DNA of 64,000 nt from Rhizodiscina lignyota (GCA_010015805.1 ML978141.1:1-64000); one strand, 5' to 3'. Shown: positions 7,961-29,424, numbered from the stretch's first letter. A program made the numbers and translations. Notes: generated from the letters alone by a model not told the origin.

Positions 7961-10671
7961 ATGACAGAGCCTGCTTCGAAGCGAAGGCGAGTCCCACAGG
8001 AACTTCGCAAGCGTTCAGAGCGGAGCTGTGACCAGTGCCGGAAAGTCTGTCTTCCATATTCCGATTCCGTGGCGAAGATTGGATCAAAATTAGGAACTCA
8101 CACTGAAACCAGCGTCGAGGCCGCTGCGAACGTTCGGCTGACAGCAACGAATGTGTTGCTTGTCGAATGAGCAAGACACCATGCACGTATGATATGCCGA
8201 GAAAGCCTCGCTTTCAAGGTAGCATTGATGAATTGAGCGGCCGGTATGCGCATGCGCTCACAAACACTCCCAGTTCTCATGTTAACTTTCTTAGATATCG
8301 CTGCCTTGATGCTATCGTGAGAGCGGCATTCCCGAATGACGCGATAGCTACCGTGGATGATCTCAGGCGTTTAGGTAAACGACTGGGGTATCAAATGCCA
8401 GAAACCCCAGATGAACCTCCTGTGGAATTAAAAGACCTTTTCGGGCCGTCGCGCTTGGCTACTGAGGATGCCAATTATGCGCCGGCTCCTCAAGTTGCGC
8501 TAGCAGAGGACGATGAAGGTACCACATCGCCAACATTTACAGCCGAAGACTTGGACTCTCCTGGCCTTGTTCGTGACTCAACTGGTCATGCTCATCACAT
8601 TGGACCATCTGGAAGTCTGGCCTTCTTTGCCTCACTGAGACATCTCATCGCTTCGAGATGTAATAGTGCTGCAAACAGTCTCAACCGTTCATCGGGGTTT
8701 GCCGATGATAATGCAGCAACGACACTTGAAAGCGATCGAACGCAGGATTCTGACGACCTGCCTAATGACTCAGCTAGGGAAGAAGACCCAGTGGCCGTTC
8801 AGCCGTCGCCATGCATATCTTCCCAAAGAAGCGACCATAAGCTGGAACAGCCGGACATGGCAGAACAGGAGAAAAATTTACCATCCTCCTCAATTATGAC
8901 TGAACTGATTCAGTCTTACTTTGATCACGTCCATCTCGACTTCCCCCTCTTTCACCGTGCAACATTTGAAGAGGAATATGAGTGTTTCATCCTTGGAGCG
9001 CGGTCAGACAGAAAGCGCCCTACAAATGGTTATCTACCATTCCCGGATTGTGGCTGGGGGTGGTTGGGTTGTCTCCATATGATGCTGGTCTTCGGTTCGC
9101 TCATTGGCGAAGCGCCAAATAGCGCCACTTGCCGATTACTTCGACGAAACTCGGTGTCGCTAGTCAGATCATTCCTTCCCCATATTGTAACCAAAAGCTC
9201 ACTGTGGAACGTTCGATGTCTCGTTCTGCTCTCGTTGTACCTGCACAACAACAGTGAACGGAATGCAGCTTGGATGCTTGCTGGAACCGCCACGAGAACT
9301 GCTCTGGCTCTCGGGTTACATCGGCGGGATCTTGACAGCTCGTTCCGGCCGATAGAGCGAGAAATGAGAAAACGAGCTTTTTGTTCCCTTTACAGCTACG
9401 AGCAATTCCTTTGCAGCACTCTTGGCAGGCCGAGTGGAATGGGTGATCCAGACGTAGAAGTTACCCCTCCGCGCGAGGGCTTCCTTTACAATGGCAACAC
9501 CATCACAGAGCTCACCGCTGCAAGTATGGAACTGCAAAAGCTTCTCTCCCGAACTCGCCGGGCTACCTCCACAGATGGCACAATTCTCGAAGCTCTCCGA
9601 AGATGGAAATCTCAATTACCGGAGTTCTTGGACTTGCCACGCTGTATTTCTTATCAAGATATTAGCATTCGCGGTTCGGCTTCCAACCCACCCGCCCACA
9701 AGCAGTTGCGGACTATTCTATCCCATCAACCGCCTGCGCGGGTCCGATCTGTGCTCCTACTACATATTCAATACCACTACATTGCAGTGCTTGTTACAAG
9801 GTCGGCATTACTGCATTTCGTCGCCTCTACATATGACGCTTCATCTGCAGCGGCACCAGGTCCTGGCCGGATTATGGAGTCCTCTGTAGACAGCGCAGAA
9901 GCAAGTGTGTACCACGCTTGCCAACTCTCTTCCCTAATAGGCATGCTCTACCGTTTCAATTTGTTACGAGGCGAGTCGGCGCTGGATGTGTTCTATGGGT
10001 ATTCCGCCGGTATGATATTGGTCCTTCGGCTTCTCTGCGCACCTCTCCCGGAAGGATCAACAACTACAGAAAGGGGTAGAGAGCTCCAGATTAGGGTCTA
10101 TCTCGAAAGTAACACGAGTTCATTGAGAGATGTCATTCGGAGAACGTCGAAATCGCCGACCATGATGCGCTTTGCATCTGTTCTGGAGTCGTTTTCAAGT
10201 CTCTTGTCAAATCCTATTCCACTGCAAACCACTGCGCATCCGAGCAGCAATTATGCTCAGACCGAATCTGCAAACGAAGCTAACCAGCATGCAATTGCAC
10301 CTCTACCTGCAGGCGCCGTCCTCGATATTGCCAATGCAAGCCCTACTGGAGTAACAAGCAACGGCACCAGAAACGCGCAGCTGAATACTGATATCTTTGG
10401 TGCCCGAATTGGTACTGATATGGGTTTGCCACGCTTCCACAATATTGGAATTGGGGAGAGTTATGACCGAAGTAACGAATCACCTAATAGACCCAATATC
10501 GCATTGACAACTAATACCGACAACACGTTTTCTCAAGCCGAAACTTTCGACGAACTCCCTCACCTGCCACTTGACTTCTCATGGTCTCCTCTTGAACATG
10601 ACCTTGGCGTTGGCTGGGCTGATTTCGAGTCACTCATTGGTGGTAATGACTTTGAATTTACCCAATTCTGA
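7961..10671 (+). CDS. Zn(II)2Cys6 transcription factor with fungal-specific TF domain
   Basis: SCDQCRK|RRGRCERSADSNECVACRMSKTPCTY once intron 8045-8112 is removed. A second intron lies at 8244-8294. YFDHVHLDFPLFH, ALALGLHR and LGRP middle-homology motifs. Acidic C-terminus. Confidence 0.92.
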
Positions 10672-10735
10672 GTCATCCCGCATCGAGCCACAGTTTCAAT
10701 CATCTGGGACTCTACATACCACTTAATCCTCGCTC

Positions 10736-12444
10736 TTACAGCGTGTACCTAAAGTCTGGATGCCTTTCGCCTAGTCTGCGCTGCTCCTCTTCGGGTAAAT
10801 CTCGAAGATGATCTCTATCTCCTCGGTCACGCTTCTTATTCTCAGCAGCGCAAAAGAAATACATTACTAATGCGGCGATGATCCCAGAAGCGGAGAAGGC
10901 AATACAAGTACCAAGTCCAGGGTAATAATGGGGCGTATCCTTCTGGGGAAAGACGACTTAAGCAATGATTCCACCGATTTGACCAAATCCGGCTGCAAAC
11001 GCAGTGAGAACTCCACGTTTTGTCTGGCCGACAACCTGGTTGACCCTTTACCAATAGTTAACTAGCGCTCTTGCAAGATGAAAGCGATGCAGGTGAATAC
11101 GCACCCCCATGCGATTACGAGCGCTTGGCAATTATATGTGCCAATAGCTGCAAGATACATCCCGAAATATCTTACCCCGACAGGTGAGACCAACATAACG
11201 AGAAGGTTGCCAACTACGGCCACTGCAAAGCTGGAGATGACGAACGGTGCTCGCTTCTTGACTTTGTCGGACCAAATTCCAACTGACACGGAGAAGATAC
11301 CTGAGACAGCACGTACCGGCGCGCTCAACAGATTCGACTTCAAATCGCTCCAGCCAAAAGCGCTCAGAATTGTCGGTTGAAAGATGGAAATGGCGTATGC
11401 TGCGACCGTAACAGACAAATACAACCATCCACTGCAGATGACTTTCCAGTCTGTGATGGCTTTAAGCGCACCAAGAAACCGGAGCTTCTCGTCCTTCCCC
11501 CTGCGGTCGTCGTCGCGCAGTCGTCTGACATACCAGTCTTTCTCTGCTGGCCTCAAGAAGGTAGATTTCTCCGGAAATGCTGGCAAAAACACAAATGACA
11601 CGATGGCCGCTATGCAAGTCATGGCCCCTTCGATGAAGAAGATCCAGGACCAACCAGAGTACCCTCCCGTCCCTTGGAGTGAGCCCAGTCCTGCACCGAG
11701 CAATCCCGAACCGATACCAGCAATGTCGTTTGACACAAACAGCCATGCGACTCTGGTGACCATTTCGTGTCTTCGGTACCAAGTCCCAATCAGAAAAAGA
11801 CAGCCAGGTAGCATACCGGCTTCGAAGAACCCGATGAGAACGCGAGCCGCTATCAGTCCCCCAGCTGACTTTGAGAAACCAGAGAATGTAATAGTAACTA
11901 TCAGAAGTGAGCTGATTGAGCGAATTTGAGATGTCTTTCGAACTTACGGCCCCAGCACATCGCAAGCCCGGAGATATAATATCTCGGAACAACACGATTC
12001 AGAATCATATTCGAGGGAATCTGTATTCCACCACCGTCAAGACAATGTCACCGGTAAAGCGTCGCTACCTCCTTACCTCGAACAGGATCAGCGGGACGTA
12101 GAAAACGAGTACTGCAACATTGTACTCATATCCATGCATATGCAAATCTTTTTCCATATTCCAAAGCCTTGCGTTACCGATGTTCACTCTGTCCAAAAAC
12201 GTGACAGTGTACAACAACACCAGGACCGGCATAAGCCGATAGTCAATCTTTTTAATTATTCTTTTCGCCTCAACTGGATCTTCTGCAGTCTCAATAATAG
12301 ACCTGTCTCAATTAGGATTTCAATCAAGGAATGGACGCAATTAAAGGCTCACCCAATGTCAGATGTTTGTTCTGTGACATTTCCTTTCTCTAAGTTCACG
12401 TCCGGCACCACGGGATCCGAGTTGTGTTGAGGCACCGTTGCCAT
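10736..12444 (-). CDS. MFS anion:cation symporter (allantoate/nicotinate permease, DAL5/TNA1-like), multi-exon
   Basis: DRVNIGNARL, GWSWIFFIEG and C-terminal HPDFRYTL* are hallmarks of fungal ACS permeases. The ATG at 12444 gives MATVPQHNS. Confidence 0.9.
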
Positions 12445-13096
12445 ACTGAAGACTGCGAGGCCGGGCTTGGCCCGACAAATGAAGAAAATGAGTCCACGAT
12501 ACAAGGATAAAGTAGTCTTTCTTTGAAAACGTCAGTCGGAAGTGCAAGTCGTCTTGATTTGTAGTTCCTGATATTGATGGTAGTGAACAGGAACAAGTCC
12601 GGCAACAGGCTTCATGGAGCACGCGGGATTTGGCGCTACCCCAGGATTATGCACCATTACTTGAACAAGAATTGCGGGGGGATTTTTCGATTGTTCAAGG
12701 TCTTCCGCATGTCGCAAACAGAAGGGAGACCTGCTTCCGGGATCTTCATGCAAGATACATACTCGGGCGGAAGCAGAACTCCTCCAGCAGACTGGGGCTT
12801 GGGTGGCTGCATCCACTACAAGTTCCTTCGATGGCGACAAAAAAGTTGGCCGTGGCTTTCAAAATACTGAACAACTATAATCCATAATCTCTACAGTGCA
12901 TAAAGCGTACAAGTTTGCCAAAGGTATGCCATTGCCATATACACTCCGAAAGACATTGTACTAAATTTTCAGAGACAGTCTCGCTGACCTTGGAGTAGGA
13001 GAGTTGTGCACACTTACACATTACTCCTGTCTGACGACCAGTTCTTTTGTCCCCCTCCACACTCAGTCTTAGCAATTCACCACTCCATTGCACGAA

Positions 13097-14474
13097 ATGC
13101 CTGCTGCCGCTGTCAAGAGAAACGTTCTCATCGTAGGTGCGGGTCTCGGTGGTCTGGCAGCATCCTTGGCTTTGCAAACGGATGGACACAACGTCACCAT
13201 AATTGATGCAGCACCGGAATTCGCTGAGGTATGTTCCCAATTCCTTGGCTTTCGAACATCAATTCACAAAGACTTTAGGCGGGAGCCGGCATTCGCGTAC
13301 CGCCGAACAGCTCCAGACTCCTCCTCCGCTGGGGTGTGGACATGGAGAATATGAAGAAGTCAACCTCGCAGATGTATCACTTTGTCCGATGGGAAGATGG
13401 CTCGACTATTGTCAAAATTCCATTTGGGCAGATTGTGGAGAATCATGGCGCACCGTACTGGCTCGTTCATAGGCACGACTTGCATAAAGGACTTCTGGAA
13501 GCTGCAGAACGGGCTGGTGTGAAAATTCTCAATAATAAGCATGTCACATATTACGATTTCAATACGCCCAGTGTCAAGACTCATGATGGTCAAGTCTTCA
13601 CGGGCGACTTGATCATTGCGGCAGATGGTAAGCCCACCTTCGGCGACGAGCGAAGACAATGATTCATAACGGCTACTCAGGCATAAAGTCGATCGCACGA
13701 CCGCAACTTACTGGACGCCCTGATATTCCACGCGACACAGGGGATGTAGCATACCGTATCCTCATTCCAGGCTCAGAACTCTTGAAAGATCCCGACTTGG
13801 CATCTCTCATCACTCACCCTGCAACCACCTCATGGTGTGGCCCGGAGGCGCATCTCGTTGGCTATCCAATCCGCGACGGTGATCTGTACAATATTGTCGT
13901 TTGCGCAACTTCGCACAACGAGACCACCGATGACACTTGGGTGGTTAAGGGCGACAATCGGGAACTTTGCCAGCGCTTTGGAAACTGGGAGCCAAGGGTA
14001 CAGAAACTGTGCGCGCTCACACAGGACTTTATGAAGTGGCGGCTGTGCGACCTCCCGGTGCTTACGAGCTGGGTGCATCCATCACAGAAAGTGTGTCTCC
14101 TTGGAGACTCGTGTCATCCGATGCTCCCATACCTTGCCCAAGGTGCTGCACAAGCCGTGGAAGATGCTGCGGTGCTTCGGCAATGCTTGGCTACCGAGAC
14201 GGATTTGGGGAGGGCACTGAAGAGATACGAGATGATTCGCTTGCCGAGAGCGTCACTCATACAGGCCAAGACGAGAGAGCACCAGTATATCTTGCACATC
14301 GACGATGGGACCGAGCAGGAGGACCGCGATGTCAAAATGAGCGTCAATGGAGAGGATAATCCAATATTTTGGGGCTGCAATGATCGAAGACACTGGTTAT
14401 TCAGCCATGATGCTGAAAATCTGAATAAGGAAGGCGCAAACTTTGACCAGGAATCAGTCTTTTCTCGTCTCTAG
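13097..14474 (+). CDS. Group A FAD-dependent aromatic monooxygenase (salicylate hydroxylase / 6-hydroxynicotinate 3-monooxygenase family), PTS1 SRL
   Basis: IVGAGLGG FAD motif, IIAADG, LLGDSCHPMLPYLAQGAAQAVEDA. Introns at ~13229-13278 and ~13628-13680. Ends SVFSRL*. Confidence 0.92.
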
Positions 14475-14723
14475 TCTTCTCTAAAGAGCTACATTCTGGA
14501 AGCCATGTTAACGGTTTCTTCATGCTCATGTCGTCTAAAGCCAACTCTACGGAGTCAGTCGTTAGACGTGTGCGGATGCAGGACTCCGTTCCGCGAAGTA
14601 GCATCCCGGCCAACAAGATCTCAAACAATCCCGACTAAACTCGACTCTCACTCATAAGAATTCCCAACTTCATATATTCTAAGTGTACCGCTGACGTCGG
14701 AGAACATTGGAGTGTATTCAACA

Positions 14724-15507
14724 CTACGTGTGTGTGACTGCGCGCACTACAGGTATTTGACTACGTACATGTGCGAATCCCTTTTTGCACCTGGTGCATT
14801 TTTTACGCGTGAGCCTCGTTTTGTGAACCAATTCGCATGGCGGGTCAGAGCATTTGAATGCTTCAGCGTATTCTTTCAGGTGGATATCAGTCTCGCTGCG
14901 CGCCCGTCTTATTGCCCCGATCCACTCATCCTCGCTAACAGACGATGGCTCTTCATTGTGCTTTACGGTGAAGCTATGAGACGTTAACTCAAGTCGAATA
15001 CGATACCCTGTAGAAGCTGGGGGCGGAGTTACACACATGTTGCATGTGACTCTCCGCCAAAATCGACGATCGCGTAAGATCTGGATTGCCACATGAGGTA
15101 TGCGCTTTCGTGCTGGAAAATACGCCCTCTGTGTCTGAAGGTCATGTATTGTTAGCTTCAGAAGTATTGAAGCAATGGGAGTGCTTGCGTACCATTTCGA
15201 GAAGCGAAAACCACTTCTCTTCCGAACAGCTTTCCTTTTCGATCAAAGTACTGATGACGAATGTTGCCCTGTCCTGCCGGCGTTGCTCAATGTAGGCTGC
15301 TCTGTTCCATTCCGCTCGCAATGTCTCGCGCTCCAGATACCTGGAGCGGTTTCTAACCATTATGCGCCAACAGTCGCGGCAAAAGGTCCAGATCGCACTC
15401 GTGAGAAAGAGAAGAATCACACCCAGGACAAAGCCAATGAGGATTCCTAGGAAGGTCCCGAAGGCCAGCCCGGCTCGTGCGGCTGAAGAATTTGGCATCG
15501 GTGCCAT
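14724..15507 (-). CDS. Hypothetical single-pass membrane protein with CxxC pairs
   Basis: ORFs 15142-15507 and 14724-15092 join in frame through a GTACGC...GCTAAC...CTTCAG intron (~15135-15192). Hydrophobic N-terminal helix LAFGTFLGILIGFVLGVILLFL. Confidence 0.55.
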
Positions 15508-16073
15508 GTCGATGGGACGACTATTGGGACAAGACCTGCTTGCGGCTAACTTTGTATGCGTGTGAAATGCTTGGATCGAGTAAGATGGGAAAATTCGGTC
15601 TGGAAGGGTAGGATGAGAAGCTCATACTCCTTTCTTAATTAATGAAGGCCAGACGACTGTGATGAATTAAGATGTACAGATAAAGATGAAAAGTGGAAAG
15701 AAACTATGAATGTTAATAATATTTGGCCGCATTAGTAAAGGCAGGCGTAACTCAGTTTCAAAGCGTCGCCCTTTCCAATCTGTGGTATTTTGAATTCACA
15801 TGTTCTCGCTAATGCGTACCTGCATTACGATGCGATGGGTGGCGATAGGTCAGTCTCCGTCGCATTGGCCCTAGGACAATGTGTTTTATTCCAACTATCG
15901 TCAGGAAAACATTCGAACGGCTTTTATGTTGTAGCTTTTGAGCTTAAATGCAAACAATGAACAGCAAATGGCATTTACAGTGTCATTTTGACAATCATGT
16001 CTGAAATTAAGGGCGGTGCGCTGAAAAGAGCGTCAAGAAACGGGCTGGCCGCAGCAAGGAGTTCCATTTTGTT

Positions 16074-17698
16074 TTACATCCTCGCTTTTCCCACTTCTGA
16101 TGTCTCGTAGTCCTTGATCCACTCGTATTTATCGCCAAGGTATTTCTGCGCTCGCAAATCTCCGGATCGCGCGTGGCCTTCGAAGTTCTCTGCTCTTGAT
16201 GCCCTTCCGCAAAGTCTTCCCAACTCACCGCTTGCCTTTTCATTCTTGACTTCTTGATACGTTACTGTTCGAAGGAATTTCCCAACCCAGAGACCTCCAG
16301 TATATTTGGCGGCTTTCTTTGTAGGAAGCACGTGATTTGTACCAATGCACTGAAGAGATTATGAGATTGGCGGTCAACAGAGAATTTTGTGGCATCTTAC
16401 CTTGTCACCGTACGACACACAGGTCTTCTCGCCCAGGAATATGGCACCATACGCTGTCATTTTTTCCAGTGCTTCTCGTGGCCTTTGCGTGAGAATCTGG
16501 ACGTGCTCAGCGGCATATTCATCCGCAAGTTTGTATGCCTCATCCAGTGAGTCTACGACCACGACGTCGCCAAGTGTTTTGTACGATGTTCCTGCTAGCG
16601 CTGCGGTAGGTAATCCTTTCAGTAGCTCATCAATTATCTCCATTGACTTGCGCGCCACTCTTTCCGACGTGGTAATGATGGTAGTCGGAGAATCAGGTCC
16701 ATGCTCGGCTTGTGAGAGGATATCCGTGGCGACTGTGAATGGGTCTGCATGTTCGTCTGCTACGACGAGAATTTCGGTTGGTCCAGCAAAGAGGTCAATT
16801 CCGATCTCGCCGTACAACTGTTTCTTGCCCTCTGCTACGAACGCATTTCCTGGACCAGCAAGGAAGTCGACTTTCTTAATCGTCTCAGTGCCGCATGCCA
16901 TCGCAGCGATCGCTTGGACACCGCCCAGAATATGAATCTCGTCAGCTCCAGCTAGATGCATTGCTGCCACGGTTCCGTTTGGAATCTTTCCAGCAATGGG
17001 TGGCGTCATGGCAGTCACATGTTTAACACCAGCCACCTTGGCAGTCAGGATCGTCATGTGCGCGGATGCCAGTAGTGGGTAACGGCCTCCAGGGATGTAT
17101 GCTCCAGTGGTGTTGATAGGGATATTCTTTTGTCCAAGGAATACGCCCTGACGGATGTCAGCTTAAGCCGTACTGCAAGATAGATTAACGGCGAAACACA
17201 TACTGGCTGCATCTCCACTTCGAAATCTTTGAGAGATTCCTTTTGCGCTTCTGCAAATATCCTCACATTCTTTTGGGCCTCTTTGATGTCGTCAACTACC
17301 TGTTTCGGCAAGGCCGCAATTGCCTCATCAATCTCTTTCTGTGAAAGCTTTTTCGGCTCCCACTTGTCGAATTTCTGCGAGTACTTGCTGACAGCAGCAT
17401 CACCATTCTGGCGGACATCGTCAATGACACCCTTGACAATCGAGGCAACATCCAGTTGAGGAGAGGATGACGCGGAGGGTTGTTCTCCCTTCTTGAGGTA
17501 ATGGCGGCCCATGTTGGAAGACACACTTGCGTTGAAGCGGATTTGGTTGTTGGTGAAGTTACGCCCGTATCTCGGCCGATGTTCAAATTTAGAACTGGAG
17601 TTACAATGGCCAGCCGTGACGAGAGGCCTCAGCCCATTTCCCCGCGAGCAGACGGCATACCGCCCCCACCTGGAGAAGAGCAGCGCGGGGTTTGACAT
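16074..17698 (-). CDS. Stand-alone histidinol-dehydrogenase-family enzyme (HisD/HpsN-like), not the trifunctional fungal His4
   Basis: YIPGGRYPLLASAHM, LGGVQAIAAMACG, AGPGNAFVAE, IDLFAGPTE, LSQAEHG, AEHVQ, GDK|CIGTNHVLPT. Introns 17148-17203 and 16350-16400. No HisI/HisE domains upstream. Ends GKARM*. Confidence 0.92.
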
Positions 17699-18734
17699 GT
17701 TGGATTGCGCTGTAGAGTATCCGAACCCGCCGGACGTCTCAATGTACCTTACGAATAAGAAGAAATGAAGTGAGAGCTCGTAGATGGAGTCGGGGGCATA
17801 ACCGGGGGAAAAGCCGACCAGTAATGTGCGGCCGAACAGCGGAAACTCATTGGCCGGAAAGGGGCAAGACACAAGGAAAAGGTGCTTCTCATAGATTTGG
17901 CCGTTGCGGCAGGCCTACTGATCGAGGACACTTGCTATCACCAGAAAGATGAGCATAGCCTTATCTTGGTATATGCTATGATTTTTTGACACTATAGAGC
18001 TGCTCTTGAGGAGCGTGGCGGGGGTGTTTGTAGCTCCGAGCATAGGTTTATGTCGTATTCTCGCAGCCTAGCCGCTTTTGGAATAACGTAACTAGCCTAC
18101 CCTTGAGCAAGTTCAAAAGCCTCTTCACTTCCTTGGACTTTTCCTTCCTCATCAACGCTCTCTTGACACAGCCGACGTCGATGCTTACAGCTACTGTGCT
18201 GATGATGATCTTCAGGCGAATTAGACCTCGGCGAGAACCACGCCACCCGGCAAGTGCGACCAGTAGCTCGGTAGAGATGCACAATACGGAGTTTCACAAT
18301 ATTCAGACCGCCGATTAATATCCCAGGGCTACGTTGCTTAAGAGCCCGACAAAGTCAAACTATTCGATCGGGGGTCTGCGTTGTAAGAACCCCGATGCGG
18401 CCGATAGAAGACTCGCCGACTAAGGACCCTCCTTTTCGAGGTCGCCGAAGTCACGAAGTGGCATGGCGAGGCTAGTGCCTGTAAGGTACATGCTTACAGA
18501 GAGGGTTTGCTTATTTCATCGAGCTATCAGCCACCTCTGTCTGTTCTAGGTTAGAAACCACGATCATTATTCATATTTGAGTTAGTAAGTCATTTAGGAT
18601 TCTATGATACTCAATCCTCAGTTCGAAACTCGGAAGTATTTAAGAATACACATTTCTCCTGCGACGCTAGACTTTAGAGTCTGCATTTCATTTGCATCAA
18701 TACATAAAGCATTTATTTCACAGTGACCAATCAA

Positions 18735-19667
18735 ATGGCTGCAAAACCCGAGGTGCGCTGCTACTTCCACGCCGGTACGGGAACATGGCAATACCTGGTA
18801 TTCGATCCAAGTTCCCTTGAAGCATGCATCATTGATCCAGTGCTTGATTTCGACATAACTTCAAGCAAACTCGGAACGGAAACGGCAGATGAACTCATCT
18901 TTCGCATAAACGAGCTCGGCGTCATTGTCACTCGCATCATGGAAACACATGCTCATGCTGATCACCTCACTGCTTCTCGATACATTCAGCAAAAGCTTGC
19001 TCAGGATGGACATGTCCCACCGGACATATGTATCGGCAAGCGGATCAAGGAGGTACAGTCCACGTTTGCCCAGAAATATGGCATCAACCCTACAGAGCTT
19101 GAGAATGTGTTCGACCACCTGTTCGACGATGATGAGCATTTCAAGATTGGAAAAGTCAATTGCTCGGTCCTCTATCTACCCGGGCATACCCCTGATCACA
19201 TTGGATATATGATCGGCGACAACGTCTTCACTGGTGACTCCATTTTTAATCCAGACGTCGGATCAGCCCGCTGCGACTTTCCTAACGGCTCAGCTACCGA
19301 TCTCTACCGTTCAATGTCAAAGCTGCTATCTTTGCCAGGACATATTCGTCTCTATACTGGTCATGATTACCCTCCTGAAACACGCACAGCCACCGAGAGT
19401 GGTCAGAAACAGATGGCTTTCACCACAGTGGAGCAGCAGAACGAGAGCAACAAGCATGTCAAGCGTGGCACTCCCGAGGCGAGTTTTGTAAAGTGGAGGT
19501 CTGAGAGAGATGCGACACTTGGAGAGCCGCGCCTGCTACACCGGGCCCTGCAAATTAACATCAGAGCTGGACGCCTTCCGCCTCCATCTAAGAATGGAGA
19601 TCGACTTCTGAACATTCCAATCAAGGAGGATAAGGTGTTGTTTGATTTAATGGATTCGAAGCTGTAA
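18735..19667 (+). CDS. Persulfide (sulfur) dioxygenase-like metallo-beta-lactamase-fold protein (ETHE1/SdoA/Blh type), PTS1 SKL
   Basis: IIDPVLDFD, METHAHADHLT, LPGHTPDH, FTGDSIFNPDVGSARCDFP, GHDY, RDATLGEPRLL...NIRAGRLP. Ends MDSKL*. Confidence 0.85.
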   Translation: MAAKPEVRCYFHAGTGTWQYLVFDPSSLEACIIDPVLDFDITSSKLGTETADELIFRINELGVIVTRIMETHAHADHLTASRYIQQKLAQDGHVPPDICIGKRIKEVQSTFAQKYGINPTELENVFDHLFDDDEHFKIGKVNCSVLYLPGHTPDHIGYMIGDNVFTGDSIFNPDVGSARCDFPNGSATDLYRSMSKLLSLPGHIRLYTGHDYPPETRTATESGQKQMAFTTVEQQNESNKHVKRGTPEASFVKWRSERDATLGEPRLLHRALQINIRAGRLPPPSKNGDRLLNIPIKEDKVLFDLMDSKL

Positions 19668-19851
19668 TACTGCAAGCTGTAGCAACAGCTGCTCATGATA
19701 TCATGTATTTTCTTCCCAGGGATAAGTCTGTACAGCGTGGTCGCTTCGTTGGGATATCCGTCATCGACTTGATCTTTTCTGTAGCCATATCCTTTATCCA
19801 GTCTATCTTCTATGCTGCACCACAATAAGAACCTGGCAATCACACCGGATC

Positions 19852-20808
19852 TTATAACTTACTCGTCGAGATGACGTTCTTCAACTCCTGTCCCGCCAGG
19901 AACCTGCGTAGATTGTGCGCAATCAAAGCTTCACACTCTTGCGGCCTGCCACCTGCTGCATGCGGGCTGATGATACAGTTCGGTGCCTTATACAGCGGTG
20001 AGCTCTCCGGCAGCGGCTCCTTCTCGAACACATCAAGTGCGGCACCACCAATTACTCCATCCTCCAATGCTTTGACCAGCGCATCTTCGTCGATCGACGT
20101 GCCTCTTCCCACATTGATGATCCACGCATGATTAGGAAGCAGTTTGAGAGTCTTCTCATTTATCACATGTCGTGTAGCGGATGATCCTGGCAGAATCATG
20201 ACCAGTGCATCAGTTTGAGAGAATAGCTCAGGAATTTCGTCTTCGCCGTACACTTCGACTCCGTTTCTCACGCCAGCTGAGCGGGCTAAACCACGAACGT
20301 TCGCCCCGAGACTCACTAGGTGTGGAGTCAGCGTCTTTGCGATGTTTCCGAAGCCCCAGATGAGCACGTTGGCGCCACGGAGAGATGTGAACTTCCCCTT
20401 GGGGCGATCGGGTTGGGGTCCGCCGAGATGGCCGGGCCATTTGGACTGAACTTGGTAGTCGCGCATTTCGAAGAAGCGGCGGCAAGCATTGAGCAAAAGC
20501 CCGACTGCATGCTCTGCAACAGTGTGATCGTGGAGACCGGATCCGGTGGTGACAACCACAGACGAGGGAAACCCGGCGGCCAGGACGTCATTAGGACCAG
20601 CGGCGAGCGATTGGATCCACTTCACATTGCGCATGCGCTGAGCGGCGTCCTTGAGACACTGTGCACTGTTCGCCCAAGTCACCAAAAATTCGGCGTCGAT
20701 GAGATTCTCAGGAATTGTCTCTTTAGGGTTGTATGAATGTAGCGAGACCCCAAATCCTTCCAAGCTCTTTTCATCGATCACGAGCGACGTAGGATAGAGG
20801 AGCTTCAT
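19852..20808 (-). CDS. D-isomer-specific 2-hydroxyacid dehydrogenase, intronless, PTS1 SKL
   Basis: VAEHA, IWGFGNIA, INVGRG, AALDVFEKEPLP, SPHAAG. Ends ISTSKL*. Confidence 0.92.
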   Translation of the reverse strand: MKLLYPTSLVIDEKSLEGFGVSLHSYNPKETIPENLIDAEFLVTWANSAQCLKDAAQRMRNVKWIQSLAAGPNDVLAAGFPSSVVVTTGSGLHDHTVAEHAVGLLLNACRRFFEMRDYQVQSKWPGHLGGPQPDRPKGKFTSLRGANVLIWGFGNIAKTLTPHLVSLGANVRGLARSAGVRNGVEVYGEDEIPELFSQTDALVMILPGSSATRHVINEKTLKLLPNHAWIINVGRGTSIDEDALVKALEDGVIGGAALDVFEKEPLPESSPLYKAPNCIISPHAAGGRPQECEALIAHNLRRFLAGQELKNVISTSKL

Positions 20809-21614
20809 TGTGACGGACTGATTCAGGCCTCAGATCTTTCAATTGAAAACGTATGAAGTAGAGAATCGTGACTGAATGAAAATCAGAAAGACAATTGACG
20901 TTTCTCCGGACAGCGGAAAAGTGTATGGTTATATCCGCTTTCGGTGAAGATACGGAGCGATGCCCGAAAGTAGATATGGCCTGCCGTAGGGCATGAATGT
21001 CTCCCTCAGAATGCAGGGACAGCTTTCAGCCTCGCTATCTCTCGCCAAGATTGTGTTGTTTGGCCGTAGATGCATATCGGCCGAGTATTACAATACTTTT
21101 CAGAGCTCTGTTGGTCTATATCTTCAACTGACAACGTGACATAACAGGCATCTTGCGACACACCCTCCAACATTCTGTCCCTATCTAAGAGGAAACCGAA
21201 AGAAACCTGCCTCGTCGAAGCATATACTGCATATCGTGCTAGCTCATGAATTAACTAAGCGACGACTCTGGCTGCAAGCTCGGCCATGATACAGGATACT
21301 CTGGCAAGATGGCAATGGCATCAATCGACCCTCCGTGAACCACTCCTCAGCATTACAACGCGTACATCCCTGAGGACAGTGAAGGGTGACAATGCATTAT
21401 GATGCATGGGGAACTAGGGTTACAATTGTTATGGAGTGAACGGGTGGGGGAACGGCGAGATATCAGGCACATGTCTGCGAAAGGCTCAAGATGTCTATTC
21501 AGCATCTGGAACTCCTCATCTCCGCTTCAAAGGGCAATAGATAGCCCATTGGAACGACTTCAAATCTGGCGTATCATACCAGGTTACTGCATCAGGTTCC
21601 TTCACTCTTCTAGA

Positions 21615-21848
21615 CATACACTCTAAATACATACTCTGAACACACACTGAACACACTACAATCATTAGACCCGCTCTAAACACTGAATATACTGTGAATG
21701 CCGAATACATACTAAACACTGAATACACTCTAAACACCGAACACACACTGAGCACCGAATATATCCTAAACACTGAACACACTCTAAACACATCTTTAAA
21801 TATACCCTAAACACTGAACACACACTGAACACACCTCTGAACACACCT
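21615..21848. repeat. Degenerate minisatellite, unit ~18 bp (AAACACTGAAYACACTCT)
   Basis: Repeated aacactgaa/aacaccgaa + cacactct/tatatcct units, visible directly. Confidence 0.8.
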
Positions 21849-23135
21849 TAAGACCTACGACTTAATGCGTTTGTAATAAGTTCTAGATGGCATACCTTGT
21901 ACATCAATTGCCTCACAGGGCCAAAGGTGAAATAATCAACTCCAATTTTCATCTCGGCTCGTTCCAGGGCAGCAGTTCTTGGGTTCTTAAAGGCCCTGTA
22001 AGGGAGGCGATAGCAATTTCACTGTTGTCAAAATAACCATGAAGTGAATATTCATCATAATGTGTCATTAACCATTGCAATTTTAGGCCGAGACAGTCAT
22101 TCCTTGCTCCTGGCCAACCATAATTCTGTAAGGACATTAGAATCACCTTCCAATACCGAGAGGTAGGCCATCAAGTAGAACTATTCCGGCCTTTGCTGAA
22201 GAGAACATTTCCACTAAATTCATGATAAGGTGAACAAATTTCGGAGGTCGGTGGGCCTCAAACTCGATCACACTGAAGCACCTCCCTTGAGACTCCGCCT
22301 CAGAACATTCAACTCGTTCAGTCCACGTCAAAAGGAGGTGAATCGGATACTGATCCAATACTCCAGATTGGTGATCTCCGCTCGCCGCATGTGAGGTCCA
22401 ACATCGAAAGCGGTCCGTTACGGTAATCATATCGACCGCCGCCTAGCGTGGATTGCGTGCTCAAACACGTGACCTCGCACGCAATATCATATAACAACCT
22501 CACCTCTCTTCTCTATGAGATTCCTCAGACTGCTCATACCAATGATTGAATGATACAAATGGTGTATACCCCACTAATGGGACTCAAATGTGAGTTGTGT
22601 GGCCCTTCTGAACTCTCTGATGCTTGCCGGCAAGTAACCGCAGAGTTCGACATTTCAATCTCGTCGCAAATTTCGCTCCCATGTTCATACGTCTTGCTAA
22701 GCTTCAACATATTTCATATTTTGTTCTCCTTTATGTCTCGGTCCTCTTTTCAATCTCCGTGTTGAGTCTTCATGCATGTCTCGTGACTCTGTCCGCCGGT
22801 CGCCATCTCCAACTCGACGGCGACGTCGACGCCGACCTTCCAAGTCAAGGAGGAACCTTAGTGATGCCCGCCGCATTCAATCCGCTCCACGCTGACTCGG
22901 ATGGGCCTCAATTATGGACTGTACCTGGCATCCGACGACCTCACGGAGGAGAAGGGGCCTATGGTGCGGGGCAAGTTTGACCTGGTCGGCGACCTGGAAA
23001 ATGCCGCGTGGTCATCCTCAGCGCTCTCCACCTCCTCTCCTTATCACGCCTTGTATGTCAAACCCATCATAATTCCGGCCATCGCTAGAGATATCATTCT
23101 TTCCAGCACTATAGAGCGTACCTCCTAGAGCCGCA

Positions 23136-24872
23136 ATGGCTTCCAAGCTCTTTTCTCCGGTCGGTCCCGGTGGCTTCATTCTCCTGCGGACTGGTGTGCC
23201 CGAACGCTTCACCGCCAGTACAAGGACACGAGCACCATTTCGTGATATCTTCCGATCATTCCAAACATTGCCACCTCGTCAGCCAAAAAGACCACTAGGG
23301 TGGCGAAAATTACTCAACTCCCCAGTGTACGGCCCATTCAGGAAACTTCATACCGCCATCGGCATAACCAAGTTCCCGAAGAGCATCTTGCTCCTTGGCG
23401 GACTACCGTTCATTCCACTTCTAGGTACAGCTTGGACTGAAGAGGATGAGACGACGACCGAAATTCCTGGAGAAGGACCTCCAAAGCTACCAAAGTTTCG
23501 ATTCTCCGACGTGCAGCAACATGGCTCGAAACACGAAAACCCTTGGATTATCAGAGGGACAAAAGTCTACGATATCACAGACTGGGTTGCTGCACATCCT
23601 GGTGGAGAGATCATTCTTCGGGCTGCAGGTGGAAGCGTTGAGCCATACTGGAAAATTTTCAAAATCCACGAGAAACAATTCGTCTACGATATTCTGGAGC
23701 AATACCTGATCGGCACTGTTGACGAACGTGATCTGGTCGACGGAAAGGTACCCCTTGAGAATATTGAAGACCCATTCGCCACCGACCCCATTCGCGACGC
23801 CCGGTTGAGGACACTCACCGACAAGCCATGCAATGCTGAAACACCTGGCGAAGTACTCAAGGATTACATCACCCCAAATGAAGTATTCTATGTCCGCAAC
23901 CATATGTGGGTACCCATTGTCGATGATACATATCGCCTTACCATTGAGCTTGCGGATGGATCCGAAGCATCATACTCTCTGCAGGACCTCAAGGATAAGT
24001 TCAAGAAGTACACCATCACGTCTGTCATGCAATGTTCAGGGAACCGTCGTAAGCAAATGAACGACAGCGTGCGGCCCACGAACGGCCTTCAGTGGACTGT
24101 GGGTGGCATTGGAAACGCTACATGGGCCGGTGTACGATTACGTGACGTTCTCGCCGATGCAGGCTTCTCAGTCGACGACCCACCGGAAGATTCTCAACAC
24201 GCTCAATTCATGGGCCTTGAAGCTTACGGTGGCTCTATTCCTATTGGTAAGGCCGTAGATGCTCATGGCGACGTTCTACTCGCATACGAGATGAACGGCG
24301 AGACTCTCCCTCCCGACCACGGTCATCCGATCCGCGTTGTTGTGCCCGGCCATGTTGCAGCACGGAGTGTCAAGTGGCTCAGCAAGATCACAATTTCAGA
24401 CGACGAGTCGATGTCCCAGTGGCAACGGAAAGACTACAAATGCTTCGGCCCAAACGAAGCGGGGAAGGAAAACTGGGCCAAAGCGCGATCGATCCAAGAG
24501 ATGCCAATCACGTCTGCCTTTACCTCCGTCTCGAAAATTAGCGACGAGCTCGTCGCGCACGGCTTCGCATACTCTGGAGGAGGGCGAGAGATTGTCCGGG
24601 TCGACGTTAGTGAAGACAATGGCAAAACGTGGAAGCAAGCGGAGTTGGTCGATGGAGATCGAAAAGGGCATAAAGCGTGGGCATGGAAGCGTTGGAAATA
24701 TCAGATCTCTCCAGAAGGCGCTGCGAATGGTGCTGAGCTCGTAGTGAAGGCCACCGACGAGGCGTACAATACACAGCCGGAACGGTACGACGCCATATAC
24801 AATGTCAGAGGCAATCTTGCTACAGCATGGCACAGAGTCCAGTTGAAGGAAGGGCGCGTTGATGGACTTTGA
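23136..24872 (+). CDS. Sulfite oxidase (presequence + cytochrome b5 + Moco + dimerisation domains), intronless
   Basis: Arg-rich presequence and hydrophobic stop-transfer stretch. b5 motif VYDITDWVAAHPGG. FYVRNH, Moco cysteine in QCSGNRR, DHGHPIRVVVPG, SVKWL, AYNTQPE. Confidence 0.95.
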   Translation: MASKLFSPVGPGGFILLRTGVPERFTASTRTRAPFRDIFRSFQTLPPRQPKRPLGWRKLLNSPVYGPFRKLHTAIGITKFPKSILLLGGLPFIPLLGTAWTEEDETTTEIPGEGPPKLPKFRFSDVQQHGSKHENPWIIRGTKVYDITDWVAAHPGGEIILRAAGGSVEPYWKIFKIHEKQFVYDILEQYLIGTVDERDLVDGKVPLENIEDPFATDPIRDARLRTLTDKPCNAETPGEVLKDYITPNEVFYVRNHMWVPIVDDTYRLTIELADGSEASYSLQDLKDKFKKYTITSVMQCSGNRRKQMNDSVRPTNGLQWTVGGIGNATWAGVRLRDVLADAGFSVDDPPEDSQHAQFMGLEAYGGSIPIGKAVDAHGDVLLAYEMNGETLPPDHGHPIRVVVPGHVAARSVKWLSKITISDDESMSQWQRKDYKCFGPNEAGKENWAKARSIQEMPITSAFTSVSKISDELVAHGFAYSGGGREIVRVDVSEDNGKTWKQAELVDGDRKGHKAWAWKRWKYQISPEGAANGAELVVKATDEAYNTQPERYDAIYNVRGNLATAWHRVQLKEGRVDGL

Positions 24873-25471
24873 GGGCGGATTCTTAATGTATCATTTCGTT
24901 TTGTTCGTGGCGTTCAGCGACGTTCTTTTGCGTTTAGCACCGGCTCGTAGAGGTTCCCACCTCTGCTTGAGCCCGATGGCGTTTTAGATTTGAAAGCGTC
25001 TGTAATTACCTATTGAGCAATCAATTATATTCATTACAACCGTTTTTTGGTTTCGACAACGGCCGTTGCTGCCCCATTACATCACTCGACTCCAAACGCT
25101 AAGGACGTATCCGCGGATCATGGCATTCCGCATCCATTCCGCCGCAAGTTACCCCGGCTCCTCCACCCCGCGCCCTGCTACTGCACTCCACACTCCAAGT
25201 TCTCTTGGGGACCCAATCTAGATTTCAGCGATACTAATTAGGGCCAGCCATCCAGTAAGGAATGGCGGCAAACACCGGAAAATGTTTACAGCTGCGAATC
25301 GGCGCAGAGAGGAGGGGCAAGGCGTCATTCGGTTGATCCGATGTCTACGAGGAGAAGTACAGATTTCATATTGAAGTACCTCAGCTGTTAGCGAATTCTT
25401 TTATCAGCTCGTCAATTATTGTCTCTTTTGTACTGAACTTTCGTATTTGTCTACTCTTACACTCCTCGACC

Positions 25472-26967
25472 ATGGCGAACTCTCAGGTCGTCCATTCCGA
25501 GGGCATCTTTCATGGCCTCCCCACATATCCCGATGCTTCTGGCTACACCAATCTCACTGCAGTCGTCACTGGAGCAAATGGAATCACTGGATATGCTATG
25601 GTGAAGGTGCTAGCCGCTGCCCCGAAGAGATGGGCAAAGATATACTGTCTCTCACGAAGGCCACCACCAGATTATTTCTTTTCAAGCCTTGGGGATGGAG
25701 CGAAGCGCGTGGAGCACGTGGCTGTTGATTTTCTGAGTGACCCCAATGATATTGCGAAAGTTCTGAAGGGGAAGGTTGATAAGGTGTAAGTCATCACAGT
25801 TGCAACTGAAAGGTTCGAGTCGGGGTTGCAAGACTAATGTTTCGTAGGGACCATGTATTCTTCTTCTCATATCTCCAACCGAAGCAGGAGGGAAAGCCAC
25901 TGTCGATGTGGTCTAACGCAGACGAGCTGGCAGAAGTGAATTGTGAGCAGCTGATCTAACCACACATGTCAAATTTCTACAGTAACATACTGACAATTAA
26001 AGCCCGCCTGCTGAATAATTTCTTAACCGCCTTGCGGAAGTCCAGTTTGCAGCCAAAACGATTCATGTTACAGACTGGAGCAAAGAACTACGCCTTTCAC
26101 ATAGGACCGGCAACGAATCCGTCATTCGAAAGCGATCCCCGTGTAAATATTGAGACCAACTTCTACTATCCTCAAGAGGACTCGCTCTTCGAATACTGTC
26201 GCGACCAAAATGTGGGCTGGAACGTTGTCCGTCCCTCGTACATTATTGGCGCCGCACAAGACTCAGCCTTGAACCACCTTGTTGGCTTCTCTATTTACGC
26301 TGCAGTCCAGGCGCACTTGAAGAAGCCGATGAATTTCCCCGGCGACTACACGGCATGGGATCGAGAGCACTGTCAGAGTTCCGCAATGCTAAACAGCTAC
26401 ATGGAAGAATGGACGGTCCTGAACCCCGATGCGGCGAATCAGGCCTTCAATATGACTGATTGCCAGCCGTTTACGTACGGTCGGTTGTGGCCGTATTTGG
26501 CCAATTGGTATGGTACGTCTTGGAATCCGCCAGAGCCAGACGATTCGAAATATAAGTCAAGTGTGAGCAGATATGAGGTTACACCACGAGGGTAAGACGG
26601 CCTGCAAGCTGTATTGTCCAACTTGCTAATGCAGCTACACAGTTATGGACCGCGCGGCGTGACGCGATTTACCTTCAACTTTCTCGATTGGTCCGAGGAT
26701 CCCGAGGTTGTCAAGGCTTGGGGCGAGTTGAAACAGAAGCATGGCCTTTCCCTCGATCCGTTCGCCTCTCGAGATGTGATCTTTGGACAGGTGAACTCGT
26801 GCGTTATCGGAGGTTGGCCATTGTCTATGAGCATGCACAAAGCTCGAAAGTTGGGCTGGCATGGTTTTGCCAATTCGTACGAGTCGGCGTTCCACTCCTT
26901 GCAAGAGATGGCAGGGATGAAGGTGATTGTTCCGATGGTAAAGTCTGAGTGGACAGAGGCCCTGTAG
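25472..26967 (+). CDS. PRISE-like (progesterone 5beta-reductase/iridoid synthase-like) NAD(P)-dependent SDR, 4 exons
   Basis: VVTGANGITG, LSRRPP, LQTGAKNY, NFYYPQED, WNVVRP, KARKLGW. Introns at ~25785-25848, ~25943-26001 and ~26592-26642. Confidence 0.88.
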
Positions 26968-27621
26968 CTATATAATTTTGACGTATCGAATTCGATTGGA
27001 TTGTTGTTTGCTGCATTCAAGCACACGAGATACCGAACAACAGTAGCTACGACGAAGGCGCAGAGATGAAGCTAAAATAAGAGAGCTAGACGACACGATG
27101 GCCGTCTTGTCAAACTAGGGAATAAATTATCGCAGAGTCCGAAGAGAGAGAATGTGCCCCTACTGATCTTCCGACATGTCCCCGATCTGGAGCATGAGCA
27201 AACAAACACCAACAACCTCAAGCAATACCGATGAGCATTGCTAATGTGAAATGGTTAGTCTGAATAACACTCCTCGGAGCCGCATGCTGTTCCCAAGCGC
27301 GTGTTTGATGGTCCCTGGAGTCCGCTCTTACAGTCTGCGCCGACTTGGAGAAATTTGCCTATTTCGCCTTTCGGCCTTCCTTTAGTAGAATCATACTAAA
27401 GTGGAGGTCGGTATTGAGAGACCATTTCACTATTGAAGACGAGTTTGTTATTGCTGATTGATCACCCGTTTAGGTTCTCGTAGACTCCGCTTGAGCGGCT
27501 TGCGCTTTCCATATCTGAGTCTTGAACAGTCTATTTAGCGATAAGCTAATTCAAACAACGCTGGTATGTAAAATCACAAAATTACATAACTGGGCGCTGC
27601 GTTCTATTGTTGGACACACAA

Positions 27622-29424
27622 TCACAGCCTCGACCTGATTTTGCTCCACAGCCCATGTCGTTGTAGGTTCGCTTCTCCGTCATATATATCTCGCTCCACA
27701 GCACGGACGTTGATCTGTGAGCCGGTCAGTATGTCATTTTGCTGGGGAGGAGAGAGGCTGTCACGTACATGATGCATGCCCAAGTCTTCGACCTTCTCAG
27801 CACCTAGCAGTCGCATGCAAGTCTCGGTCTCAGCTTTCAATACTGTATCAATGTCAGTCAGTATTCCATTATAAGGCCGGGAGCTCTCGACAAACGTACT
27901 CTCAAACACGCGCTCCACACCCTCAATACCTCCCGCTCCAAGAGCAAATAGCGGCGGTCTTCCGATTCCAACACCCTTCGCGCCCAAGCACAGCGCCTTG
28001 ACGACATCCGTGCCACGCTTGATACCGCCGTCTACCCAGACCTCGATCCGGTCAAAGACCTCCGGGCAGTATTTACGGATTTCCAGAAGCGTGTGCACGG
28101 CCGGTGGAGCAGTGTCGAGTGCTCTGCCACCGTGATTTGAAAGAATGATGGCTTTGACCTGCGGCGCGTACTGACTCGCTATGTAGGCATCCTCATGAGT
28201 CTGTACGCCCTTCAATACAATAGGGAGTTTCGTGTGTTTCGCAAGCCAAGGAAGTGTCGTTTGCCACGTCAAGTCCGGCGCTGTTCCCGCGAAAAGCGCG
28301 ACTCCTACTCCACCTGATCCTGGTGCATCCGGCGCAGACGAGCCCGACGTCGCTGCTCCTGTATTCGGTGCTGTGGATGTGCTTGCCGTAGATCCAGATT
28401 CGCTCTGCACCGCAGCCTTGACCGGCAAGTTGCTCCCAATATTCTTCGAACGCTCATCGTGCTCTCGCTTCCCCGGCACCGGCGCATCGAGCGTCAGAGC
28501 GATGAACTTGATTTGGGCTAGCTTGTTGATTCTCGCAATCATCTTCTCGCTCTTCGCACGGTTCGTCTGCACGTATAGCTGCCAGCCGAAGATCTGTCCG
28601 GGTGCGGAGTCCTTAACAATGTCCTCAGGTGTCTGACTCGCGTTGTTGCTGATGACCTGCAGAGCGCCGTATTTGGCTGCAGCCTTTGCGATGCCGTTCT
28701 CACCCGCAGGGTGAGCAAGTCTTGCCATAGCTGCTGGAGAAACGTAGATTGGGAGGTTGACTTTGTGTCCAAGGAATGTCGTCGATGTATCGCAGTTTGT
28801 GCAGTCGACGAATATTCGTGGCCGGAGGAGAATTTGTCGATACACAGTGTTGTTCAGTTGCTTCGACATCAGGTCGTCTCCTGCAGAATAGTAGTATGCC
28901 CATGCTTTCTTCCTCAACCGCGGAGTTGCCGCAGCTTCTATGTCTTCTATGTTCAACAGGCTCGAGAGGTCCACCGGCTCGTTCCTCGCAGCTTTGGCGG
29001 CCGAGTCCGAAAACACGTCCGACTCAATCGCTTCCTCCAGCCGCTTTTGTGACCTCGGTGTAAGCTGGAGACCCTCGGCTTCGCCCGTCTCGACTTCGGT
29101 CTTTTCAACTTGTGGAAGTGTCTTGGGGTCTATTGTGCCGAGCTTCGCGGACGGTTTGAGATTCGACTCGAGGGTGCCTGGAGGATGGACGGGATCGTAC
29201 TCTTCTGTGGCATCTTGGCCTGCGAGCTGGAGAATGATTTTCGATCCGCCAGGATGGGACGAGAGGAAATCGGTTACGTCGTAGACGGCGCCGTAGAGGA
29301 TGACCCAGCAGCTGTCTGGCGAGTTGTGCTTGGAAACTATACATCCGTTAGTTCGATTGGGTCTCTAAATCAAGAAACTGATGCCAGAATACATGCCTTC
29401 ATCGTACGAAAACACCTTCGACAT
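27622..29424 (-). CDS. Flavocytochrome b2 (cytochrome b5 + FMN alpha-hydroxyacid dehydrogenase), no mitochondrial presequence, PTS1 SRL
   Basis: [14 protein letters not shown] heme domain. [37 protein letters not shown]. Introns 29337-29396 (GC-AG), 27843-27899 and 27715-27768. Ends KIRSRL*. Confidence 0.93.

Follow-up and report, generated by a model that had tools for sequence, protein, structure and literature searches.

Fungal gene clusters with peroxisome-compartmentalised steps are known for the late stages of penicillin, for AK-toxin, for fusarinine-type siderophores and for nicotinate in Aspergillus nidulans (the hxn cluster). The locus analyzed here, positions 7961 to 29424 of a 64,000-nucleotide stretch from Rhizodiscina lignyota (GCA_010015805.1 ML978141.1:1-64000; this whole stretch is referred to as the window), shares with those clusters neighboring products that bear a type 1 peroxisomal targeting signal (PTS1), a pathway transcription factor (TF) and transporters of the major facilitator superfamily (MFS). 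We read it as a lineage-specific Dothideomycete island of PTS1-tagged oxidoreductases, a mosaic of at least two modules and not one conserved pathway, and give this reading about an even chance of being correct. The mosaic character was apparent in the nearest characterized relatives of its enzymes, which came from unrelated pathways: 4-hydroxybenzoate and vanillate hydroxylases, the 3-dehydrogenase of 2,3-dihydroxypropane-1-sulfonate (DHPS), and the persulfide dioxygenase (PDO) of the Pseudomonas putida type together with Blh.

Gene models were built by hand from three-frame translations and GT-AG junctions, with a GC-AG junction in one case. The genes of the window carry spliceosomal introns, and Zn2Cys6 regulators are present. 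The interval comprises nine genes:

7961..10671, plus strand: Zn2Cys6 TF; first exon with its ATG at 7961, an intron, and a main exon at 8107-10671; Fungal_trans E 1e-24; C-terminus FTQF, no PTS1.
10736..12444, minus strand: MFS transporter of the anion:cation symporter (ACS) type; several exons; MFS_1 E 5e-23; C-terminus RYTL.
13097..14474, plus strand: group A FAD monooxygenase; 424 aa in three exons (13097-13228, 13279-13627, 13681-14474); C-terminus SRL.
16074..17512, minus strand: HisD-family stand-alone Zn/NAD four-electron alcohol dehydrogenase (HisD-like); 443 aa in three exons (17512-17204, 17147-16401, 16349-16074); Histidinol_dh E 9e-92; C-terminus ARM.
18735..19667, plus strand: metallo-beta-lactamase (MBL) fold protein, similar to type-II PDO; 310 aa, single exon; C-terminus SKL.
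19852..20808, minus strand: D-isomer-specific 2-hydroxyacid dehydrogenase (2HADH); 318 aa, single exon; 2-Hacid_dh_C E 5e-48; C-terminus SKL.
23136..24872, plus strand: cytochrome b5 (cyt-b5) sulfite oxidase; Cyt-b5, Oxidored_molyb and Mo-co_dimer domains; SorA 182 bits; C-terminus VDGL, no PTS1.
25472..~27000 (3' end approximate), plus strand: PRISE-family Rossmann reductase; about four exons; PF22917 E 1e-11; C-terminus TEAL, no PTS1.
27622..29424, minus strand: flavocytochrome b2 (Fcb2), with cyt b5 and FMN_dh; 543 aa in four exons; FMN_dh E 7e-96, Cyt-b5 E 3e-20; C-terminus SRL.

The five C-termini that an earlier reading of this DNA (the original prediction) had named as PTS1 were all recovered from the translations, directly before the stop codon and in true last exons: FSRL at 14474(+), KARM at 16074(-), DSKL at 19667(+), TSKL at 19852(-) and RSRL at 27622(-). 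Among the 498 stop-terminated six-frame open reading frames (ORFs) that span 60 aa or more of the 64-kb window, ends of the class [SAC][KRH][LM] were found in five, which are the five named enzymes. None occurred among the other 493, in line with the further claim that no other gene of the window ends in this way; for genes outside the interval this count covers last exons of 60 aa or more. At a threshold of at least 20 aa, 11 of 1977 ORFs (0.56%) carried such an end, the other six being 21-58 aa long, non-coding and outside the gene models. Four of the five ends were SKL or SRL, the strongest classes. Based on an assumed proteome frequency of about 2% for the class, our own arithmetic gave a probability of about 4e-7 for at least five PTS1 in nine consecutive genes, and of about 0.004 over some 12,000 genome positions. 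Because of the count of 5/498 ORFs and this low probability in a nine-gene run, the five-fold PTS1 run was confirmed as real and non-random. The enzymes had been described as five neighbors, and all five do lie in the nine-gene interval; however, two genes without PTS1, those for the sulfite oxidase and the PRISE reductase, which had gone unmentioned, intervene between the fourth (2HADH) and the fifth (Fcb2).

PTS1 was called from the C-terminal tripeptide alone. At the other end of the proteins, inspection and regular-expression searches found no N-terminal extension and no type 2 signal (PTS2) pattern in any of the five; in each of them the first domain opens at the N-terminus or a few residues behind it. 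The Pfam domains of the 2HADH reach to within five residues of its C-terminus, and the PTS1 tails extend beyond the region aligned to bacterial structures by 14 aa in the MBL protein and by 19 aa in the HisD-like enzyme (compared with HpsN). With no N-terminal presequence on any of these soluble, cofactor-bound oxidoreductases, peroxisomal import is plausible, and from these features the five tripeptides are most likely functional and the enzymes imported into peroxisomes. The cytosolic receptor Pex5 would recognize the tripeptide, so that the folded enzymes would be brought into the peroxisomal matrix.

The first proposed module (A) would comprise the TF at 7961, the ACS-type MFS and the monooxygenase, and would serve the uptake of a phenolic acid of the 4-hydroxybenzoate type. 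The best PDB matches of the monooxygenase, near full length, were 8gsm ('4-hydroxybenzoate decarboxylase', 304 bits) and 8x38 ('decarboxylative vanillate 1-hydroxylase', 297 bits); lower scores were obtained for 6-hydroxynicotinate monooxygenase (164 bits) and for salicylate hydroxylases (120-153 bits). By these matches it resembles the MNX1-type family of decarboxylating phenolic-acid hydroxylases, a type which, according to the available part of PMC13559804, strips the carboxyl group from lignin-derived 4-hydroxybenzoates. An MNX1-like enzyme at this locus would remove the carboxyl group by ipso-hydroxylation, using NAD(P)H and O2 and yielding a hydroquinone and CO2. For the MFS transporter at 10736-12444, the leading NCBIfam matches were TIGR00893 (2A0114; E 4e-27) and then the 4-hydroxyphenylacetate permease HpaX (E 4e-18), both below cut-off.

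The second proposed module (B) would gather oxidizers of hydroxy compounds, namely the HisD-like enzyme, the D-2HADH, Fcb2 and the PDO-like protein. In two successive NAD+ steps, the HpsN-related Zn/NAD enzyme would turn a primary alcohol whose neighboring carbon bears a 2-hydroxy or 2-amino group into the acid; the D-2-hydroxyacid dehydrogenase and the L-specific flavocytochrome b2 could between them convert a 2-hydroxy acid, in either enantiomeric form, to the 2-oxo acid; and the PDO-like iron enzyme would oxidize R-SSH with O2 to sulfite.

Of these enzymes, the HisD-like protein was the most distinctive. Its best PDB match was CpHpsN (8v35, 361 bits over residues 5-424), followed by another (R)-DHPS dehydrogenase (343 bits), whereas HisD structures scored 212-248 bits (248 for Escherichia coli HisD); exon 2 alone passed the TIGR00069 domain model with 299 bits. 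The catalytic pair Glu318-His319 of CpHpsN, Asp352-Lys353, the Zn ligands Gln248 and His251, His359 and the trans-subunit His411 were all kept in the alignment, in which the segments AEH, GDK, QAEHG and GHAR of the window protein align with CpHpsN active-site residues, whose roles are those given in the accessible portion of PMC11382572. The same portion describes a diagnostic HpsN motif, G-R-Y-A/S-H, the final histidine of which (His126) binds the sulfonate. The window protein reads GRYPL at this position, a leucine replacing His126, as do 111 of 120 fungal matches and at least 43 of 66 bacterial relatives; HisD itself has G-S-A-P-L, unlike GRYPL. Identity within the group was 74-83% across Pezizomycotina and 65-74% to intron-less bacterial genes. 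Judged by sequence, GRYPL is a third, uncharacterized clade beside HisD and HpsN, and literature searches returned no report of this clade or of a fungal HisD paralogue; none of the seven papers listed among the ten that mention PF00815 describes such a clade. A role in histidine biosynthesis was ruled out by the motif (GRYPL, not GSAPL) and by the lower score against HisD than against HpsN; the fungal biosynthetic HisD is part of the trifunctional His4. Membership of a DHPS pathway was likewise rejected, because of the change from His126 to Leu and the absence of sulfolyases: no sulfolyase families (SuyAB, Xsc, CuyA) were present among the Pfam matches of the window, nor in the seven of 71 bacterial HisD-like loci whose neighbors were scanned with Pfam.

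The genomic context of the bacterial relatives was drawn from a metagenome scan with exon 2 of the HisD-like gene, which retrieved 80 loci, nine with introns at the fungal positions and 71 intron-less (bacterial). At the bacterial loci, a same-strand short-chain dehydrogenase/reductase (SDR) gene follows in 52 of 70, and a divergent LacI-type regulator precedes in 32; these SDRs best fitted the model of the GolD/DthD polyol dehydrogenases, and genes for sugar-type ABC components lie nearby. Because of this combination of LacI regulator, GolD/DthD-like SDR and sugar-type ABC genes, the bacterial context points to polyol-like substrates, not to sulfur compounds. The relationship between the fungal and bacterial members suggests an old transfer of a polyol-type dehydrogenase from bacterium to fungus. 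The GRYPL clade is a well-defined target for enzyme discovery beside the recently solved HpsN, and the most concrete lead from this locus.

The MBL protein matched NF040641, the dioxygenase half of the bifunctional sulfurtransferase/dioxygenase Blh, over positions 139-421 of 423 (E 2e-84); as it lacks the rhodanese half, its score fell short of the 625-bit cut-off. Against the PDB it matched 9g8t (242 bits) and 4ysk (219 bits, E 1e-63), the latter a PDO of the P. putida type, and it carries the metal motif THAHADH (HxHxDH). On the strength of the Blh and 4ysk matches, the label "persulfide dioxygenase" given by the original prediction is reasonable. The best NCBIfam match of the 2HADH was a D-2-hydroxyacid dehydrogenase (174 bits, below cut-off). 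Its best representatives are 49% identical and start with MK[IV]L.P as bacterial proteins do, only short fragments reaching 67-73%; it is a rare gene, possibly of bacterial origin.

Fcb2 matched Saccharomyces cerevisiae Cyb2 (1fcb) with 281 bits. Its model contains introns of 60 nt (GC-AG), 57 nt and 54 nt, the two 3' ones in frame and free of stops; the SRL end therefore holds whether these are spliced or not. The first intron (29337-29396, 60 nt) has a GC donor and reads GCATGT...CTAAC...TAG; alternative GT donors break the frame. The model opens directly in the cyt-b5 domain, with no presequence for the intermembrane space, a start that rests on the predicted GC-AG intron. The sulfite oxidase, in turn, carries ahead of its cyt-b5 domain a basic N-terminal stretch some 95 residues long and then a hydrophobic segment, and from this looks mitochondrial in type (animal-like, resembling intermembrane-space enzymes) and not peroxisomal.

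The conservation of PTS1 in orthologues, which the original prediction had proposed as a check, was shallow: the signal was enriched in the nearest relatives and subclades, and strict PTS1 was rare across the wider families. Strict [SAC][KRH][LM] ends were found in 8 of 93 full-length HisD-like homologues. Among the 16 full-length entries named as Dothideomycetes, counted by hand from entry names and termini, eight were strict and six near-consensus (AQL, SKI, AKI, AMI twice, and GNL); the Xylariales homologues end in ..EARR or ..EAKK. For the MBL protein, 8 of 120 homologues were strict and 25 of 120 had x[KR][LM], mostly in a shared ..LMRGPKL-type tail, the remaining ones being about 303 aa long and lacking the tail. 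Strict ends in the monooxygenase family were limited to 4 of 120 sequences, namely the query and, of the four homologues nearest to it whose tail is complete, the three that end in ARL. For the 2HADH there were none in 150 representatives (a 50%-identity set), of which the nearest full-length one was only 49% identical. PTS1-like ends thus recur among the nearest relatives in the HisD-like, MBL and monooxygenase families. A different end, -AH (AAH, KAH, TAH and others), was seen in 51 of 120 monooxygenase homologues (entries P0246-P0365); to our knowledge it matches no known targeting signal.

These counts bear on the alternative that the tripeptides are mostly non-functional or weakly used, that the enzymes are cytosolic, and that they came to be adjacent by accident, in an accessory region dense with genes and rich in oxidoreductases. 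The absence of PTS1 from most orthologues implies that the enzymes can function without peroxisomes, and the surroundings of the interval, with a second TF and MFS pair, two SDRs and a NUDIX gene, are typical of a loosely organized accessory region. Nevertheless, five strict ends in nine genes as against none in the other 493 ORFs, four of them SKL or SRL, and tails that lie beyond the bacterial domains and reappear in close relatives make this alternative unlikely.

The second alternative is the one put forward originally, namely a single co-regulated peroxisomal pathway under the control of the 7961 TF, in which all five PTS1 enzymes would degrade one small anion supplied through the ACS-type MFS. 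Its layout was found as described: the TF (7961-10671) and the ACS-family importer (10736-12444) stand beside the enzymes (13097-29424), and there are two divergent promoter pairs, formed by the starts of the MFS at 12444(-) and the monooxygenase at 13097(+), and by those of the HisD-like gene at 17512(-) and the MBL gene at 18735(+). The concentration of PTS1 in five of nine genes also speaks for a single pathway, and the D- and L-2-hydroxyacid dehydrogenases would suit a racemic 2-hydroxy-acid intermediate from the HpsN-like enzyme. The linkage of these genes was, however, not conserved. Linkage across species was judged from the length of the contig carrying each protein match, an indirect proxy that differing assemblies of one species could mislead. 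On this basis the HisD-like and monooxygenase orthologues lay on different contigs in seven species (Hypoxylon trugodes, Hypomontagnella monticulosa, Xylariales sp. PMI_506, Rostrohypoxylon terebratum, Hypoxylon texense, Parahypoxylon ruwenzoriense and Rhinocladiella mackenziei), the HisD-like and MBL orthologues in Tricladium varicosporioides, and the MBL and monooxygenase orthologues in Xylogone sp. PMI_703, so that conserved linkage failed in nine species comparisons; a shared contig, of 275,077 bases, was seen only in R. lignyota entries.

The metagenome loci gave the same result. In the nine fungal contigs (only 1.2-8.3 kb), tblastn with the window proteins showed the HisD-like gene to have no neighbor orthologous to the PDO, 2HADH, monooxygenase, Fcb2 or sulfite oxidase, and elsewhere among the 80 HisD-like loci the other window enzymes gave matches of only 27-30% identity (L001, L002, L031). 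Instead, three fungal contigs (L004, L042, L075) have a convergent SDR gene downstream of the HisD-like gene, these SDRs being orthologous to one another (55-83% identity), with genes for a CocE/NonD-type hydrolase, a cupin, an ADC protein and an isochorismatase nearby. The corresponding 1.6 kb of the window (14475-16073, between the convergent monooxygenase and HisD-like genes) yielded no Pfam match and, by tblastn, no SDR remnant. Moreover, 80 bacterial PDO loci (36-45% identity) had no homologue of the HisD-like enzyme, 2HADH, monooxygenase or Fcb2 within 8 kb, and a single sulfite oxidase-like gene (L102); apart from this gene and the low-identity matches, the 71 bacterial HisD-like and 80 bacterial PDO loci showed no co-occurrence. 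An aromatic decarboxylating hydroxylase and a persulfide dioxygenase have no known common substrate, and the PTS1 run is broken by two genes without the signal. No k-mer of 8-10 nt was common to at least four of seven upstream regions, which is a weak test and was not counted as evidence; CGG/CCG pairs occur everywhere in these regions, with no common spacing. Considered together, unlinked orthologues, rare PTS1 and unrelated chemistry leave a single conserved pathway quite unlikely, so that of the peroxisome-compartmentalised pathway originally proposed it is the peroxisomal tagging that remains likely, from the five PTS1 and the absence of N-terminal signals. Unlinked orthologues and a PTS1 that is not broadly conserved are among the outcomes that the original prediction had itself named as refuting it. 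The remark that the gene combination is not a described pathway agreed with a literature search, which found no description of it. Readings as a nicotinate (hxn) or a mandelate/aryl-lactate pathway found no support beyond the pair of D- and L-2-hydroxyacid dehydrogenases.

A third alternative places the locus in organosulfur metabolism: the HpsN-like enzyme would act on a C3 diol or amino alcohol that carries sulfur (an analogue of DHPS or cysteinolate with a thiol or sulfonate group) and oxidize it to a 2-hydroxy acid, the D/L dehydrogenases would carry this to the 2-oxo acid, and the sulfur, released as persulfide or sulfite, would be oxidized first by the PDO and afterwards by the sulfite oxidase at 23136. 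Several observations fit. DHPS-3-dehydrogenase is the closest solved relative of the HisD-like protein, with catalytic and Zn residues conserved (by the available part of PMC11382572); L-cysteinolate is also oxidized by HpsN homologues (according to the accessible part of PMC12814064); and the PDO-like gene is the divergent neighbor of the HisD-like gene, with the sulfite oxidase gene lying 3.5 kb further on. Against this, the sulfonate-binding His126 is replaced by Leu in the window protein as in most of its fungal and bacterial relatives, no desulfonating enzyme (SuyAB, Xsc, CuyA), sulfurtransferase or rhodanese was found among the Pfam matches of the window, and the bacterial relatives sit in LacI-regulated operons with GolD/DthD-like SDRs and sugar-type ABC transporters, which point to polyols. 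The PDO and HisD-like genes are unlinked elsewhere and the sulfite oxidase looks mitochondrial, so that we hold an organosulfur route to be very unlikely. Least probable of all is a still more specific proposal, in which bacterial-type enzymes (the GRYPL dehydrogenase, type-II PDO and D-2HADH) would have gained PTS1 tails and joined the presequence-less Fcb2 in a peroxisomal route that turns a C3 alcohol with sulfur into a 2-oxo acid and sulfite; if true, no fungal pathway of sulfur oxidation in peroxisomes would have preceded it.

The mosaic island of PTS1-tagged oxidoreductases has to be weighed against several points of its own. The module assignments rest on 40-55% identity to characterized enzymes, with predicted substrates, and peroxisomal import was inferred from sequence features. 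Strict PTS1 is missing from 85 of 93 HisD-like, 112 of 120 MBL and 116 of 120 monooxygenase homologues; because it is absent from most orthologues, many members of these families would work outside peroxisomes. ARM, the end of the HisD-like enzyme, is a weaker PTS1, and a peroxisomal Fcb2 has no obvious electron acceptor, cytochrome c being absent there. A run of five PTS1 is also so improbable that a common function stays under fair suspicion, which a mosaic leaves unexplained. The same holds for the adjacency of PTS1 enzymes that are otherwise unrelated, for the electron acceptor of a cyt-b5 enzyme in the peroxisome, and for the role of a PDO in that compartment.

If the five enzymes are imported together, a persulfide dioxygenase and a flavocytochrome b2 would be placed in peroxisomes; a literature search found no report of a peroxisomal flavocytochrome b2, nor, among the papers listed, of a fungal peroxisomal persulfide dioxygenase. 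Fungi would then be able to build a peroxisomal reaction space quickly, by means of three-residue tails on enzymes of different origin and the gathering of their genes.

As regards the models themselves, that of the monooxygenase was letter-identical to entry P0246, "salicylate hydroxylase [Rhizodiscina lignyota]", that of the HisD-like enzyme to P0006, "histidinol dehydrogenase 1 [Rhizodiscina lignyota]", and the MBL protein was 100% identical to the R. lignyota entry P0126. The CDQCRK...C motif of the TF at 7961 is interrupted by an intron. The interval is flanked (1209-7092 and 30808-31449) by a second Zn2Cys6 TF and MFS pair (1209-4709, minus strand), an SDR gene (6232-7092) and a NUDIX gene, on account of which the metabolic island is wider than 7961-29424; past about 37 kb the genes are housekeeping ones (Sey1, a Ras-type GTPase, eIF2D, Atg22). 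At about 21500-21800 of the window, inside the 2.3-kb non-coding stretch between the 2HADH and sulfite oxidase genes, one frame of the translation reiterates NTEYTLNTEHTL as a short tandem repeat.

Compared with the penicillin, AK-toxin, siderophore and hxn clusters, which are syntenic and have a defined chemistry, the locus differs in that synteny fails in every comparison made here and its enzymes fit no one chemistry. The individual enzymes compare more closely with known systems. With Cyb2 (1fcb), the window Fcb2 shares the cyt b5 and FMN_dh domains, but it lacks the mitochondrial presequence and ends in SRL. With the type-II PDO of P. putida (4ysk) and the corresponding half of Blh (NF040641), the MBL protein shares the fold, the THAHADH motif and a full-length alignment (219 bits); it differs in having neither a fused nor an adjacent rhodanese and in a 14-residue C-terminal tail leading to SKL, and is PDO-like by sequence alone. 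E. coli HisD (1k75) belongs to the same family as the HisD-like protein, which passes TIGR00069, but the latter is a stand-alone enzyme with a different motif and scores 248 bits against HisD as opposed to 361 bits against HpsN. HpsN of Cupriavidus pinatubonensis (8v35; available part of PMC11382572) shares with it the PF00815 fold, the rank of best PDB match and the conserved catalytic and Zn residues, whereas the window protein is eukaryotic, with introns, a PTS1 tail, the GRYPL motif and no suyAB, xsc or cuyA neighbors. Finally, the monooxygenase shares with the MNX1-type hydroxylases (8gsm and 8x38; PcMNX1 in the accessible part of PMC13559804) the group A flavoprotein architecture and scores of 297-304 bits near full length, while it belongs to a distinct orthologue group (70-84% identity within Pezizomycotina) and ends in SRL.

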